Origin: an uncultured Methanosarcinales archaeon
Lineage (GTDB): Archaea; Nanobdellota; Nanobdellia; Woesearchaeales; UBA12501
Assembly: GCA_964397315.1 (NCBI GenBank)
Contig: CAYNHV010000003.1
Coordinates: forward strand, 19,336-83,335
Direction of reading: 5' to 3'
DNA: 64,000 bases
Part shown: positions 15,001-21,000 of the stretch, in pieces
Position numbering within the stretch: position 1 is the first letter of the stretch
Layout of the letters: the number at the start of each line of letters is the position of its first letter
Program-made: the position numbers

Positions 15001-18000
15001 TTTCTTGAACTGGTTTATGTTCTTGACATCCTTTATCACATGGGCCTTTCCCTGGCCTATCTTGTCTCCCACTGAATGCCCTTTTGCAAGCATCTTTCCT
15101 GTTTCCTTGAGATGGTATGTCTTGAGCTTTGTGACATCCTTCTGGGACATGACTGTCTCAGGCCTTGCCTGCACTATGAAGAGCTGGTTAAGCTGGCCGT
15201 CCTTTGCCCATTCCATGTCCATGGGCTTGAAATGCCCTGCCTTTCCTGAGTAATGACCCTCCACTATTGAAGCCCACTTTGCCAGGGTCAGGATCTCGTT
15301 GTCAGAGAGCACGAACTTTTTCCTGTCTTCCTCAGGCACCGGCACGTTCTTTGTGGTGGCCTTTTCCCCCTGCATGTCATAAATCATCTTAATCTTCTTC
15401 TCTCCCACCTTCTTTGACAGTATCGGCCTGAATCCTTTCTTGAGCGTGGGCTTGAAAACATAGTACTCATCCGGGTTTACAGCTCCCTGAACCACGTTCT
15501 CGCCGAGGCCGTAAGCGCCGGTTATGAACACCGAGCCCCTGAACCCTGTCTCAGTGTCTATTGAGAACATTACTCCTGAGCAGGCTGTGTCAGACCTTAC
15601 CATCTTCTGAACCCCTATTGAAAGCGCTATGGAGAAATGGTCAAATCCCTTGTCAACCCTGTATGATATTGCCCTGTTGGTGAACAGCGATGCAAAGCAT
15701 TTCTTGCAGGAGTCTATGACTGCATCATCCCCTTTTATGTTGAGGTATGTCTCCTGCTGGCCCGCAAAGCTCGCGTCAGGAAGATCTTCTGCTGTTGCAG
15801 AGCTTCTCACTGCAACATCAACATCCCCTCTCTTCTTGTCATACGCACCGCAGAGGTTCCTATAAGCCTTAAGTATGGCATCCCTCAGCTCAGGGGGGAA
15901 TTCAGCATGCCTTATTATGTGCCTTACCTGGCGGCCCTTCTCGTAAAGGTTCTTCAGGTTGGTCGTGTCAAGGTCCTTGAGAACCTCCCTTATCCTGTCC
16001 TTTATGCCTGCCCTCTCAAGAAGATACCTGTAGGCGCGGGCTGTGACTGCAAAGCCGTTTGGCACCAGCACTCCCTTGTCTGTGAGCTCCCTGTACATCT
16101 CTCCCAGAGATGCGTTCTTTCCTCCCACAAGCCCCACGTCATCAATCCCTATCTGGTCAAACCACAGAATAAACGCGTCTTTTTTCCACTCCTCAAGCAT
16201 GCAATCACCTCTTTTACACCCCTGAAGAGGGGTTGATATATAAATTTTTATCTTCAGGAGCAGAAGCGTCTGCAGGCGCGCAGAGGATGTTTTCTCACTC
16301 TGGAATACTAATAAACTTTTTTATTGCACTCTCTCATGCCCTCCTGTATATGGCAAAGAAAGTTGCGATAATAGGGTGCGGCTTTGTAGGAAGCACAGCA
16401 GCGTATGCCATGCTGCTCAAGGAAGTGGCGAATGAGATAATCCTTATTGACATAAGCAGGGAGAAGGCAGAGGGCCATGCAATGGACCTTGAGCAGGGGA
16501 TACAGTTTGTCAGGGAGGCGAAGATATCATATGGTGATTCTTACGAGCACTGCAGTGATGCGGATGTCATCGTAATAACAGCAGGCATACCCCAGAAGGA
16601 GGGGGAGACAAGGCTTGACCTTGTGGGAAAGAACGCAAAGCTCTTCAGGGAGATGATACCAAAGATTGTGGAGCACAACAAGAACTGTGTTTTTGTCGTT
16701 GTAACCAACCCAGTGGACATCATAACATACCTCACGCTGAAGCATTCAGGCTTCCCAAAAGAGAGGGTGTTCGGCACAGGGACAACTCTTGACACTGCAC
16801 GGTTCAGGTACTTCTTAGGGGAGCACTTCAACGTGAACGTCCATAACATCCACGCTTACATTCTCGGAGAGCACGGGGACACTGAATTCCCTGTGTGGAG
16901 CAACGCGACCATAGCAGGCATGAACCTGAGCCAGGTGGATGGCTACAGCAGGGAGGCGATGGACGGGATATTCAGCAAGACAAAGAATGCAGCATATGAG
17001 ATAATATCAAGAAAGGGCTCAACATACTATGCGATAGGCCTTGTCATAACAGAGATAGTCAGCGCAGTGCTTAATGACGAGGACAGGATATTCCCGGTCT
17101 CAACCTACATAGAGAATTATTATGACGAGGGAGGGCTGTGCATAAGCACTCCATGCGTTATAGGGTGTGGAGGCATAAAAAGGAGGATTCAGCTGCCCCT
17201 TAATGAAGAGGAGCAGGAGAGCCTTCACAAGTCAGCTGGAAAGTTAAATGAGTACCTAGCAAAGGCAGAAGAGGAGTGACTTCCCAGGATTATGACCCCG
17301 ACTTATATTATGCCCTTGTTATGCTCTTGCTTTCAGAACTCGCTTCTCCTGAAATACCTTGTATGCAGAAGCTCCTTTGACTTTTTTGAGAGGGGCTTTC
17401 CAAGAAAGTCAGAGTATATCTTCCTGACAACAGGATTCTCATGGGACTTTCTAAGCTTCATCTTTGCATCCTGCTCGTAGATGGCATTCATCCTCCTGTT
17501 TATCTTATCCCATTCAAACGGGAGCGGCTGTCCCCCTCCGCCTATGCAGCCTCCGGGGCAGGCCATTATCTCAATGAAGTCATAATCATCCTTCTTTTTC
17601 AGCAGCTTTCTTGCGTTCTGCAGGCCGTTTGCTGCCGCAAATCTTAGCTTCCTGCCCTTTATTGTTATGCTGCCCTCCTTAATTCCCTCCATTCCCCTCA
17701 GCTGGTCAAACTCAAGCCTTTCAACAGGCTTTCCTTCTGCAAGCTCATAAGCTGTCCTTAACGCAGCCTCCATGACCCCTCCTGTTGCGCCGAACACAGC
17801 TCCAGCTCCTGTTGACACTCCAAGCGCGGGGTCAAACCCCTCATCATCCAGGTTCTTAAAGTCAATACCATAATGCTTTATGAGCCTTGCAGCTTCTCTT
17901 GTTGTGAGCACATAATCAACCATGCTCTTGAGCTCAGGCCGGGTTGACTCAAACTTCTTTGCAGTGCAGGGCATTACTGACACCACAACAATGTCTTTCT

Positions 18001-21000
18001 CTGGTATGCCCTCATTCCTTGCGTAATACTTCTTTGTGAGAATCCCAAGCATCTCATGCGGGCTCTTGCACGATGACATATTCGGCAGCAGCTCATGGTA
18101 GAAGTGCTCCATGAATTTTATCCATGCGGGGCAGCAGGTTGTTATCATCGGCAGAGGCTTTCCTTTTTCCAGCCTTTCAAGCAGCTCTGAGGCCTCCTCC
18201 ATTATGGTCATGTCAGCTCCGAGGTCAGTGTCAAACACCCTGTCGAACCCGCATCTCCTCAGCGCAGCAACCATCCTGCCTGTCACGAGGGTTCCCGGCT
18301 CAAGACTGAACTCCTCTCCAAGGGAGGCTCTTATTGAGGGCGCTGTCTGCACCACAACGTGCTTGTTATCATCCTCAACAGCTTCAATCACTTCCTTTAT
18401 GTGCTCCCTCTCACTTATGGCTCCCACAGGGCAGGCTGCTATGCACTGCCCGCATTTTGTGCAGGCAACTTCATTAAGCTCATGCTCGTAATAGGGGGTG
18501 ACGTGCTCGTGATGCCCCCTCCCTGCAAAGTCAATCGCCCATGTTGCCTGAACTTCAGAGCAGACCTGAACGCACCTTCCGCAGTTTATGCACAGGTTAT
18601 TGTCCCTTATCACAGACGCTCCCAAGTCCTGCTTGTATTCCCTTTTAGGGTCAAACCTGACATCCTTCAGGTTCATCTCCTGGATAATCCTGCACAGGTC
18701 ATGGCTCTTGTTCTCTGTCATACATTTGGAGACGTGCTCTGACATGAGCAGCTCTGCATTCATCTTCCTGGCTTTGGTTATCCTGTCTGACTCTGTGATC
18801 ACCTCCATACCCTCTGCAGGGTGTGTGCTGCATGACGTGACCAGCTTTCCGTCAGCCTCAACAAGGCAGAGCCTGCACCTGGCAGAAGGCTCAAGACCCT
18901 CCTGATAGCACAGGGAGGGAATCCTTACATTGTTCTCCCTGGCTATGGCAAGCAGCGTCCTGCCAGAATCACATTCAATCTCCTTTCCATCAATCTTTAT
19001 TTTCATTCTCCTTTCCTGTCCATGTTTTTTTGCGCAGGCCTTGCCAGCCTCTCCTCAAACTCTTTCCTGAAGTATTTCAGCGCTGTAATCAGGTGGTTCA
19101 TTGATGTCTGGCCCAGCCCGCAGAATGATGTTTCCTTAACAACTTCAGCAAGCTCTTCAAGAGTTGCAAGATCCTTTTTTGCCGCTTTTCCCAGGGAGAG
19201 GTTCTCAAGTATTGCAAGGATCCTCATTGTTCCCTCCCTGCAGGACGTGCACTTTCCGCAGGACTCAAACTCGTAGAACTTTGCTATGTTGGTTGCCATG
19301 TCAACCATTGACCTTGTCTCGTCAACAGCTATCACTGAGCAGGCTCCGAGCAGGCAGCCCTTTCCGCAGACATTATCCGGTGTAAGCTCAATGTCGCAGT
19401 TTGGCATGCAGCCTCCGAAGCATCCGAAATAGACTGCCTTTATCCTGTTCTTTGGCTTCCCCATTTCCAGAAGCTCGCACAGCTTTATGCCGTGAGGCAG
19501 CTCGTAAACCCCTGGCTTTGAAACATCGCCTGAGAGGGAGTAAAGCCTGAGCTCAGGATTCCAGTCCTCAAATGCTATTGCAAGCGCAGCATTGGCAAGC
19601 GTCTCAACATTGTTTATGATAGTGGGCTTTCCGAAAAGGCCTCTTGTTGTTGGAAACGGCGGCTTCTGCCTTGGCTGGCCCCTGTAACCCTCTATTGAGC
19701 TTATTATTGCGGTCTCATCACCGCACACATAAGAGCCGGCACCGACTATGATCCTTATGCTCAGGGAGGAGCCTGCCCTGCTTAACACCCTGTCTGCTGT
19801 TTTTCTCAGCCTGTATTCCATGTAGTCATACTCTCCCCTGAGGTATATGAATGCCTGCTCCGCCCCTGCTGCAAAAGCAGCTATCATCAGGCCTTCTATG
19901 ACAGTTTCGGGGTTTTTCTGGAGTATGTGCTTGTCCTTGAATGTGCCAGGCTCTCCCTCATCAGCATTGCAGATGACATACTTCTTATCGCCCTCTGCCT
20001 CAAGGACTATCCCCCACTTCTTTCCTGTAGGGAACTCAGCTCCTCCCCTTCCCTTAAGCCCTTTGTCCTTCAGCAGCTGGATTGTTCCCTTCCGGCCAAG
20101 ATTTTTCGCCTTGCTGTACGCTTCCAGTCCTGTTCTTCTCAGCACCTGCATTTTACACCTGCCTGCACCTGTCAAGTATCTCCTCAACCCTTTTCCTTGT
20201 CAGGTTACCATAGACCCTGCTGTTGATTCTCATTGAGGGCGGCTTGTAGCAGCAGCCGATGCATGAGCATATGTGGAGGCTGAACATTCCGTCCTTTGTT
20301 GTCTGGCCTGACTTTATGCCCAGCTTTTTCTCAATAAACCTTATGATGTCAAGCGAGCCGTTAAGATAACAGGAGGGCGAGTTGCATATCTCAATAATGT
20401 ATTTTCCCTGCTTCCTTGCGTGGAGCATGGAGTAGAATGTCATTGCAGCATATACTCTTGAGGCAGGGATGCCTGTTTTTTTGCTTATGCTCTTGACCGC
20501 CTCTTCTGAGACAAAACCTTCCTTTTCCTGGGATCTCCTCAGCAGAGGGAGCAGCAGATCTTCCATCAATCAACCTCTTTTTAAGCGCTTAATCTTTTCT
20601 TGGAGTACTGAAGGGCGTAAGCACCTGTTCCGCCGCAGACTGCTGTTATGAGCTGCATTATTCCCATCGCAGTCAGGAACATCGCGGGGATGATTCCCAG
20701 AGAGTAGAGCAGAAGCGCTGAAAGGAACAGGAATCCTGACTTAAGGGCAGAGCCTGCGCCGAGAGTCACCCAGTAATTCCACCCTTTATTCAGCCTGAAC
20801 AGCTTGAATGAGAGCACAAGAACCGCATTGCCCGCCCATATGAACGGCGCAAGGTAGAGCAGGTGATGGGTGAAAGGCCCGAACAGGGCAGCTCCTGACA
20901 ATGCTCCAAGAGAGGGAGCGATTATCACAGGCAGCAGCCTGTATCCTTTCAGGTTAAGGCCTGCCAGGACAAGCATTGCATTGACCGCTATTCCCACCAC

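Follow-up and report, generated by a model that had tools for sequence, protein, structure and literature searches.

Introduction

Trimeric [FeFe] hydrogenases encoded by hydABC are described as the most widespread [FeFe] hydrogenases of archaea and occur in six or more DPANN phyla (PMC11216029; PMC8421398). Reports of such enzymes in Woesearchaeota and other DPANN archaea appeared in 2021 (Huang, PMC8421398) and 2024 (Greening, PMC11216029), and the [FeFe] hydrogenase genes of Woesearchaeota are transcribed in situ (PMC11606122). The present article describes one such locus on the minus strand, at positions 17333-20569 of a 64-kb stretch of the archaeal contig CAYNHV010000003.1. The whole stretch is called the window, and all coordinates are given in its numbering. 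Three adjoining open reading frames (ORFs) of 557, 394 (longest ORF) and 138 amino acids (aa) match the contiguous hydC, hydB and hydA genes that an original prediction, made from this DNA alone, had placed there. The encoded HydABC enzyme is probably a ferredoxin-independent, non-bifurcating oxidoreductase of protons and reduced nicotinamide adenine dinucleotide (NADH:H+ oxidoreductase), and not a bifurcating hydrogenase of group A3. This reading is favored because HydB comprises the core of its family only, all residue signatures agree with it, and HydA scores above the cut-off of the NCBIfam model NF040763.

Bifurcating HydABC enzymes (group A3, Bfu family) have been described in Thermotoga maritima, Acetobacterium woodii and Thermoanaerobacter kivui (PDB 7p5h, 7q4v, 8a6t). 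Hyd1ABC of Syntrophomonas wolfei and HydAB of Syntrophus aciditrophicus are non-bifurcating, NADH-dependent and ferredoxin-independent (Losey 2017, 2020) and belong to the type that NF040763 names 'group A6'. A C-terminal domain of HydB is present in all characterised bifurcating [FeFe] hydrogenases and missing from the non-bifurcating NAD-dependent ones (Furlan 2022, PMC9499530). A eukaryotic hydrogenase in complex with core NuoE and NuoF subunits was experimentally found to be non-bifurcating (2026 study, PMC13556243). Trimeric hydrogenase operons of Woesearchaeota are thus already known, and the new points are the non-bifurcating reading, the lost branch cluster of HydA, and the fold of a membrane protein encoded in the operon, which resembles the S component of energy-coupling factor (ECF) transporters. 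No paper combining the terms 'non-bifurcating', [FeFe] and DPANN was found in the searchable literature.

The distinction between a bifurcating and a simple NADH-dependent hydrogenase changes the predicted ecology of DPANN archaea. If the enzyme is non-bifurcating, these abundant uncultured archaea would be tied to H2-consuming partners, and the assumed supply of reduced ferredoxin would be dropped from metabolic models. The 'bifurcating' label given in three genome surveys therefore deserves re-examination on sequence evidence.

Subunit architecture and residue signatures

HydB matches Complex1_51K, SLBB and NADH_4Fe-4S only in Pfam, which agrees with the NuoF-like character predicted for it. 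It consists of a flavin mononucleotide (FMN)/NADH domain plus an SLBB domain, with a single [4Fe-4S] site (C298, C301, C304, C344). The N-terminal [2Fe-2S] domain is absent from HydB, which has no N-terminal extension, whereas bifurcating-type relatives have 130-190 residues with 4-6 cysteines at this end. The C-terminal domain with two [4Fe-4S] clusters (B3 and B4) is also absent, and no Fer4 match was obtained in Pfam. After the CGLGQT motif, the window HydB has 33 residues and no cysteine, compared with 91 residues and 10 cysteines in bifurcating-type relatives; HydB of bacterial relatives can carry ~505-523 residues after this motif. Alignment of HydB to the structures of bifurcating HydB, NfnB and NiFe-HydB covered only their residues ~136-524.

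The residue signatures point in the same direction. In the numbering of T. maritima HydB (TmHydB), bifurcating beta subunits carry A/E232, M234, F367 and GGPSG at 427-431, and non-bifurcating ones have the NuoF core only, T/S232, K/S/A234, Y367 and no GGPSG (Losey 2020, PMC7311640). The NADH site of the window HydB reads EPGTFKD, with T and K at TmHydB 232 and 234, where the bifurcating type has A-F-M. Its FMN site reads GAGSYVCG, with Y at TmHydB 367 in place of F, and its SLBB motif is GCFGGC, compared with GGPSG (TmHydB 427-431) in the bifurcating type. The window HydB falls on the non-bifurcating side of all four criteria published for the beta subunit (Losey 2020). The absence from HydB of every element specific to bifurcation had gone unremarked in the original prediction. 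The non-bifurcating pattern recurs throughout the 31 DPANN-clade sequences, with a single exception (locus L002, with A at position 232). The combination of A, M and F with GGPSG was found in 21/21 bacterial relatives with a long, bifurcating-type HydB. This domain content and these signatures are direct observations.

A set of three cysteines and a histidine within HydB (C244, C262, C266, H353) is invariant in the DPANN clade and occurs in no bacterial relative. It has the ligand chemistry of the zinc hinge of T. maritima HydB, at other positions, and may be a relocated structural metal site. HydC, predicted to be a NuoE-like 2Fe-2S subunit, matches Pfam 2Fe-2S_thioredx with 145.6 bits (E = 1e-42), which bears out the prediction, and it scores just under the cut-offs of the NCBIfam NuoE models.

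HydA contains the Pfam domains Fer2_4, two Fer4, Fe_hyd_lg_C (E = 1e-94, 317 bits) and Fe_hyd_SSU (82 bits). Its N-terminal [2Fe-2S] ligands are C33, C44, C47 and C59, followed by two ferredoxin-like [4Fe-4S] motifs, and its C-terminus is a small-subunit-like domain. Together with the domains of HydB and HydC, these matches fit a HydABC-type [FeFe] hydrogenase, as predicted. HydA was tested for the group A motifs P1 (TSCCPxW), P2 (MPCxxKxxE) and P3 (ExMxCxxGCxxGGGQP), which include four cysteine ligands and the proton-relay cysteine. The motifs were found as TTC291C292PAW, MPC347TAKKFE and EIMAC483PGGC487IGGGGQP, respectively, and all strings quoted in the prediction (GRGGAEFPTGKKW, TTCCPAW, MPCTAKKFE, EIMACPGGCIGGGGQP) are present. 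HydA is a group A catalytic subunit by these three motifs and by the 'group A' model TIGR02512 (496 bits, cut-off 406). It passes NF040763 ('NADH-dependent [FeFe] hydrogenase, group A6') narrowly, with 774.4 bits against a cut-off of 765, and NCBI (PGAP) gave this name to two relatives at 73-75% identity. The best match among solved structures is 8a6t_A, HydA1 of T. kivui HydABC (611 bits), compared with ~475 bits for CpI.

The His-ligated [4Fe-4S] motif of HydA (H-x3-C-x2-C-x5-C) is degenerate in the window. H91, C95, H102 and C105 are kept, and the middle cysteine is lost with a 2-aa deletion (HydA residues 88-105, window 18692-18745). In an alignment of motifs and cluster ligands of 61 sequences, this motif was degenerate in 31/31 DPANN-clade sequences and intact in every bacterial relative examined. 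No cysteine is left in it in the HydA of the Pacearchaeota/Micrarchaeota subclade. The clade conserves the [2Fe-2S] ligands, the two ferredoxin-like motifs and every H-cluster ligand. The earlier description of HydA as 'CpI-type' is therefore right in its three H-cluster motifs and imprecise in its label, since T. kivui HydA1 is the better match and the full M3 (CpI-like) set of accessory clusters is not intact. The His-ligated cluster, called A4 in the T. maritima enzyme, couples the two protomers there, and in CpI it lies on the way to the ferredoxin site (PMC9499530). Its apparent loss fits a linear chain with a single electron donor, and the loss of this branch cluster across the whole DPANN clade is one point that the present alignment adds.

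In most bacterial relatives with a HydB of 596-1037 aa (L036-L084), P1 reads 'TSCSPGW' and not 'TSCCPxW'. HydA1 of A. woodii likewise carries TSCSPGW in the PDB alignment. The loci among them with a HydB of ~1011 aa may encode Stn/Nfn-type transhydrogenases rather than hydrogenases.

Proposed electron path

Cofactor occupancy, the direction of catalysis and independence from ferredoxin are what we infer from these features. By homology, NADH would give hydride to the FMN of HydB, and from there single electrons would move on to HydB's only [4Fe-4S] cluster. HydA would receive them at its N-terminal [2Fe-2S] cluster and relay them over its two ferredoxin-like [4Fe-4S] clusters to the H-cluster, the site of proton reduction to H2. 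HydC's [2Fe-2S] cluster would be placed outside this chain, as N1a is in complex I. A ferredoxin branch does not appear to be encoded, as the N- and C-terminal FeS domains of HydB are gone and the His-ligated cluster of HydA is not intact. The reaction from NADH to H2 would be reversible, and H2-driven reduction of NAD+ would be equally possible. Maturation of the H-cluster presumably does without HydEFG, which has been proposed for most archaea, and formation of the holo-enzyme is assumed here. The fourth protein of the operon, Hyd6TM, is a conserved, co-transcribed partner of HydA. The adjacent L-lactate dehydrogenase (L-LDH) could act as a second or alternative sink for NADH.

Electron transfer from NADH to H2 is endergonic at standard state. 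H2 evolution would therefore take place only at a few to tens of Pa H2, and H2-consuming neighbors would be needed. Characterised enzymes of the non-bifurcating kind sustain only ~2-40 Pa H2 (Losey 2020, PMC7311640).

Operon structure and the fourth gene

The features of the locus are collected in Table 1. The longest ORF of hydB extends over 19003-20187 from a TTG start at 20187 and encodes 394 aa, whereas the 382 aa of the likely start were also given by independent gene calling. An alternative TTG start of hydC lies at 20569 (138 aa); independent gene calling gave 137 aa. The stop codon of hyd6TM is located 12 nt before the ATG of hydC with a GAGGT Shine-Dalgarno sequence between them, 1 nt separates the stop of hydC from the ATG of hydB, and the stop of hydB overlaps the start of hydA by 4 nt (ATGA). 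A Shine-Dalgarno sequence precedes every start codon of the operon. The short gaps and the overlap establish hyd6TM-hydC-hydB-hydA as an operon unit, and its gene content and structure can be stated plainly. The cluster had been described as complete with three genes; the fourth, co-directional gene belongs to it as well.

Table 1. Features of the hyd operon and the adjoining gene in window coordinates
Feature	Coordinates	Strand	Size and start	Description
hydA	17333..19006	-	557 aa	Catalytic [FeFe] hydrogenase subunit; Pfam, NCBIfam and motif alignment
hydB	19003..20151	-	382 aa from ATG at 20151 (likely start)	NuoF-like NADH/FMN diaphorase subunit
hydC	20153..20566	-	137 aa from ATG at 20566	NuoE-like thioredoxin-fold [2Fe-2S] subunit
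hyd6TM	20581..21138	-	185 aa, GTG start	Fourth operon gene; six-helix membrane protein
Putative operon promoter	21178..21187	-		Archaeal TATA-box-like TTATTTAAAT, ~40 nt upstream of the hyd6TM GTG; inferred from the sequence
L-lactate dehydrogenase	16350..17279	+		Convergent with hydA, outside the operon; NCBIfam NF000824, TIGR01771

The fourth gene is the hyd6TM of Greening et al. 2024 (PMC11216029), in which it was left uncharacterised, and this was the sole paper naming hyd6TM that was found in the searchable literature. The protein is predicted to fold like an S component of ECF transporters, with all six helices, and comes closest to RibU. At the sequence level, membership in an S-component family was not found, as hyd6TM had no Pfam, NCBIfam or PDB sequence-profile match at E <= 10. 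Genes for the ECF ATPase and T component (EcfA/EcfT) were not found within the window. The hyd6TM family comprises 832 cluster representatives at 50% identity (E <= 1e-3), and nearly all of its members are annotated as hypothetical; one was called 'riboflavin transporter' by JGI. In the deposited annotations (NCBI, Logan), hyd6TM extends over 20581-21060 and encodes 159 aa from an ATG at 21060. This start is probably too far downstream, because the 26 residues encoded ahead of it, beginning with the GTG at 21138, can be aligned to an N-terminus (LQxYxL) that is conserved in the ~182-aa homologs.

A search centered on hyd6TM found hydA within ~3 kb of a hyd6TM homolog in 14/16 metagenome loci, counting those in which the homolog is flanked by 3 kb or more on each side. 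Three kinds of partner HydA were seen. The first belongs to the trimer with a short HydB. The second belongs to a trimer with a bifurcating-type HydB of 595-596 aa, in which hyd6TM follows hydA (L088, L138, L155). The third is a minimal HydA of 261-307 aa without a flavoprotein, hydB or hydC nearby (L086, L122, L163). As hyd6TM stands beside HydA of all architectures, it tracks the H-cluster subunit and not the flavoprotein. The minimal-HydA loci lie at L086 6001-7310, L122 23-1567 and L163 4994-6471, and one of them has a 4-nt overlap with the hyd6TM homolog. Their HydA-like motifs are P1 'T/S-x-CP', P2 'PCxxK' and P3 'CxGGCxxGPG'.

The GTDB loci had suggested that hyd6TM is tied to short-HydB enzymes and supplies riboflavin for the FMN of HydB, but this idea was weakened by the loci with a long HydB and those with a minimal HydA. 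Vitamin import, membrane anchoring and a part in HydEFG-independent maturation are candidate roles of the protein. A more specific proposal is that Hyd6TM is devoted to importing a precursor or cofactor of the H-cluster, or to chaperoning it at the membrane, as part of HydEFG-independent maturation in lineages without HydEFG, and that the DPANN 'A3' enzymes form a distinct, streamlined NADH-only class; this proposal is speculative and is considered unlikely. The fold assignment provides a testable handle on how archaea without HydEFG make or supply an active [FeFe] hydrogenase.

Genomic context and relatives

The archaeal nature of the replicon, as predicted, was evident from the flanking genes. 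These encode MCM, archease, a PF0610-like protein, Elp3, a beta-CASP nuclease, the exosome proteins Rrp41/42 and Rrp4, SBDS, proteasome alpha, Rpp14, Rpb6, S19e, L31e, Cbf5, KaiC-like ATPases and a type-IV-pilus-like cluster. The L-LDH next to hydA scores 399 bits with NF000824 (cut-off 339) and 387 bits with TIGR01771 (cut-off 304), and the next gene is of the phosphoenolpyruvate synthase/pyruvate phosphate dikinase family (Pfam). Both had been noted as neighbors, and with the hydrogenase beside LDH the suggested fermentative role is plausible.

Several results speak for a real locus, native to a DPANN archaeon of the Woesearchaeota type. GC content is 0.50 across the hyd operon, like its flanks, and GC at third codon positions (GC3) of the hyd genes is 0.57-0.62. 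In codon usage (Jensen-Shannon distance), GC and GC3, hydA and hydB rank with the most typical large genes of the window. The comparison of GC and codon usage with the flanks, which had been proposed as a check, thus gave no difference and no sign of import, and a recent lateral transfer or genomic island was ruled out by these values. An independent Logan assembly contig (run SRR7048227) matches window 18199-23326 with 100% identity and contains the methyltransferase-like and M50 peptidase genes, hyd6TM, hydC, hydB and a 5' portion of hydA. It covers the upstream junction of the operon, for which a chimeric contig, the misassembly named as a caveat of the prediction, was ruled out; the downstream hydA/LDH junction lies outside it. 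Relatives on contigs of 0.58-1.0 Mb carry the operon between archaeal ribosomal and Elp3 genes, and in the Woesearchaeota genome B3_Woes (1.0-Mb contig) the same operon stands between Elp3 and a ribosomal-protein cluster. Elp3 (window 27542-29263) is 7 kb from the hyd operon here and 2 kb in B3_Woes (L001 4193-5878), a partial conservation of the neighborhood.

An identical HydA is present in NCBI, on a contig of 110.5 kb. A scan of one genome per GTDB species found ~35 loci with close HydA homologs (58-73% identity), labelled as Woesearchaeota, Pacearchaeota, Nanoarchaeota, Micrarchaeota, Diapherotrites, unclassified archaeon or 'uncultured Methanosarcinales'. One further close locus came from a 'Pseudomonadota' metagenome-assembled genome (MAG). 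The next best matches, at <=52% identity, were bacterial (Moorella, Atribacterota, Clostridia). Neighbor-joining trees placed the window HydA and HydB inside a Woesearchaeota subclade of a DPANN-wide clade, with bootstrap values of 100% (HydA) and 88% (HydB); the trees of the two subunits were broadly congruent. Clade membership is thus an observed result. It speaks against the lateral origin that had been suggested, and a bacterial origin, if any, is ancient and precedes the diversification of the DPANN clade. The accompanying statement that [FeFe] hydrogenases are uncommon in archaea is outdated, given trimeric hydABC in at least six DPANN phyla and in ~35 GTDB species-representative DPANN genomes.

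Two sets of contigs binned as Desulfuromonadales and Pseudomonadota (L002/L003 6494-10227 and L069 3764-7674) carry a DPANN-type hydC-hydB(370 aa)-hydA with hyd6TM, and their hyd sets are placed within the Woesearchaeota subclade. Genes for LptF/LptG, EF-Ts and S2 lie near the hyd segment of L002, whose GC is slightly below that of the flanks. The hyd sets of L002 and L069 may have been transferred from an archaeon to a bacterium. TPA_asm MAG contigs titled 'uncultured Methanosarcinales archaeon' (L007-L009, L012, L013, L019, L024) have an operon of the DPANN type and belong to the DPANN clade, and these titles are probably placeholders or wrong taxonomy.

Other observations concern the rest of the window. 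Scans for tRNA genes and Rfam families found nothing in it. A DDE_3 transposase at 58588-59552 (-) is split over two overlapping ORFs with a GC of 0.36-0.39, against a window mean of 0.48, and is probably an insertion-sequence remnant. ORFs at 12962-13645 and 1481-2601 have a low GC (0.36-0.43), atypical codon usage and no family match where scanned; they may be foreign or fast-evolving genes. At 37295-43460, three KaiC-like ATPase genes adjoin a T2SSE/T2SSF cluster of type-IV-pilus or archaellum-like kind.

Alternative explanations

The published view is that the enzyme is an electron-bifurcating or confurcating group A3 HydABC, in which H2 production needs NADH and reduced ferredoxin together. 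Three papers (PMC8421398, PMC11216029, PMC11606122) assign group A3 via nuoE/nuoF-like neighbors or gene order and AlphaFold modelling, and the contiguous, translationally coupled hydC-hydB-hydA genes of the window have the organisation by which bifurcating HydABC (group A3 / Bfu) is recognised, with the same three subunits. Further points weigh against a non-bifurcating enzyme. The best solved match of HydA is the bifurcating T. kivui HydA1, and the HydB core scores 285-301 bits with bifurcating-family HydB structures and ~271 bits with NuoF. The margin of HydA over the A6 cut-off is only 9 bits, and counts of FeS domains are by themselves not diagnostic according to Losey et al. (PMC7311640). 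The glycine-rich loop of HydB reads GRGGAEF and not GRGGAGF, at a glycine position that varies within the clade. The clade-specific Cys3His set of HydB could bind an unanticipated cofactor, and a ferredoxin-interacting partner may be encoded elsewhere in the genome. A bifurcating enzyme is nonetheless improbable. The B3/B4 domain, the N-terminal [2Fe-2S] domain and the A-F-M, F and GGPSG signatures are all absent from HydB, as are the conserved cysteine and histidine residues of bifurcating-type HydB (which may include the zinc-hinge ligands), and HydA lacks an intact His-ligated cluster. The C-terminal clusters of HydB are held to be essential (Furlan 2022, PMC9499530). The published A3 calls are based on gene neighborhood, and the group A subtypes of HydDB describe organisation and not mechanism (PMC8421398). 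On the sequence evidence, the enzyme and the whole DPANN clade have probably been mis-assigned in the literature.

The same non-bifurcating enzyme might work physiologically as an H2-uptake, NAD+-reducing hydrogenase that turns scavenged H2 into NADH for lactate formation or biosynthesis. Characterised non-bifurcating HydAB/HydABC enzymes are reversible and reduce NAD+ with H2 (Losey 2020, PMC7311640), this direction is exergonic above tens of Pa of ambient H2, and an LDH that consumes NADH lies next to the operon. In fermenters, however, [FeFe] hydrogenases of group A normally evolve H2, a sugar-fermenting metabolism in need of NADH sinks is predicted for Woesearchaeota (PMC8421398, PMC11606122), and no downstream energy-conserving consumer of NADH was seen within the window, so an uptake role is conceivable but unlikely. 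A non-functional relic, whose H-cluster could not be built without HydEFG, is very unlikely. No HydE-, HydF- or HydG-like protein was found in the window, as predicted, or in ~3 kb of extra contig beyond its start; the only radical S-adenosylmethionine proteins of the window are Elp3 and a MiaB-like protein, and its GTPases are Obg/YchF-like. The full maturase set occurs in only 5/130 archaeal genomes with [FeFe] hydrogenases, and the same study found archaeal HydA active after cofactor insertion and proposed a maturase-free alternative pathway (PMC11216029). The H-cluster ligands and motifs are invariant in the 31 DPANN-clade sequences despite overall identities of 58-77%, which points to purifying selection, and the transcription of such genes in situ likewise argues against a relic. 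A recent bacterial import or a bacterial/archaeal chimeric contig is the most improbable of all. In its favor, [FeFe] hydrogenases occur mainly in bacteria, homologs at 64-65% identity were found on two MAG contigs with bacterial labels, and Greening 2024 (PMC11216029) inferred several transfers of group A enzymes from bacteria to archaea. The bacterial-labelled sequences, however, fall inside the DPANN clade and not outside it, bacterial enzymes outside the clade are <=52% identical, and the typical composition, the nesting of HydA and HydB among Woesearchaeota, the partial Elp3 synteny and the reproduced upstream junction all contradict an import or a chimera. A native, NADH-dependent, non-bifurcating hydrogenase is therefore the preferred reading.

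Comparison with known systems

The window enzyme shares with the S. wolfei Hyd1ABC type the HydA, NuoF-like and NuoE-like subunits, a HydB limited to the NuoF core, the T/K, Y and non-GGPSG residues, and a HydA above the A6 cut-off. It differs from the enzymes of S. wolfei and of S. aciditrophicus in the Cys3His set of HydB, in an SLBB motif of GCFGG and not the NuoF-like GGVSS, and in the ECF-S-like gene of its operon. With the bifurcating HydABC of T. maritima, A. woodii and T. kivui, it has in common the gene order, homologous subunits, the domain order of HydA, and the main FeS chain from FMN to the H-cluster. In contrast, its HydB is without the N-terminal [2Fe-2S] domain, the C-terminal B3/B4 domain and the conserved cysteine and histidine residues (which may include the zinc-hinge ligands) of those enzymes and has signatures of the non-bifurcating type, and its HydA is without the A4 cluster that couples their protomers.

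Hyd6TM resembles the S components of ECF vitamin transporters, among them RibU and the solitary BtuM, in its predicted six-helix fold and its size of ~180 aa, but its sequence identity to them is just 6-15%. Its genomic partner, unlike theirs, is an H-cluster protein, including the flavin-free minimal HydA. The window locus is a member of the published trimeric enzymes of DPANN archaea and Woesearchaeota (PMC8421398, PMC11216029), with the same operon, clade, hyd6TM neighbor and absence of maturases. These studies assigned the DPANN trimers to the bifurcating group A3 and left hyd6TM uncharacterised, whereas the present sequences point to a non-bifurcating enzyme and an ECF-S/RibU-like Hyd6TM.

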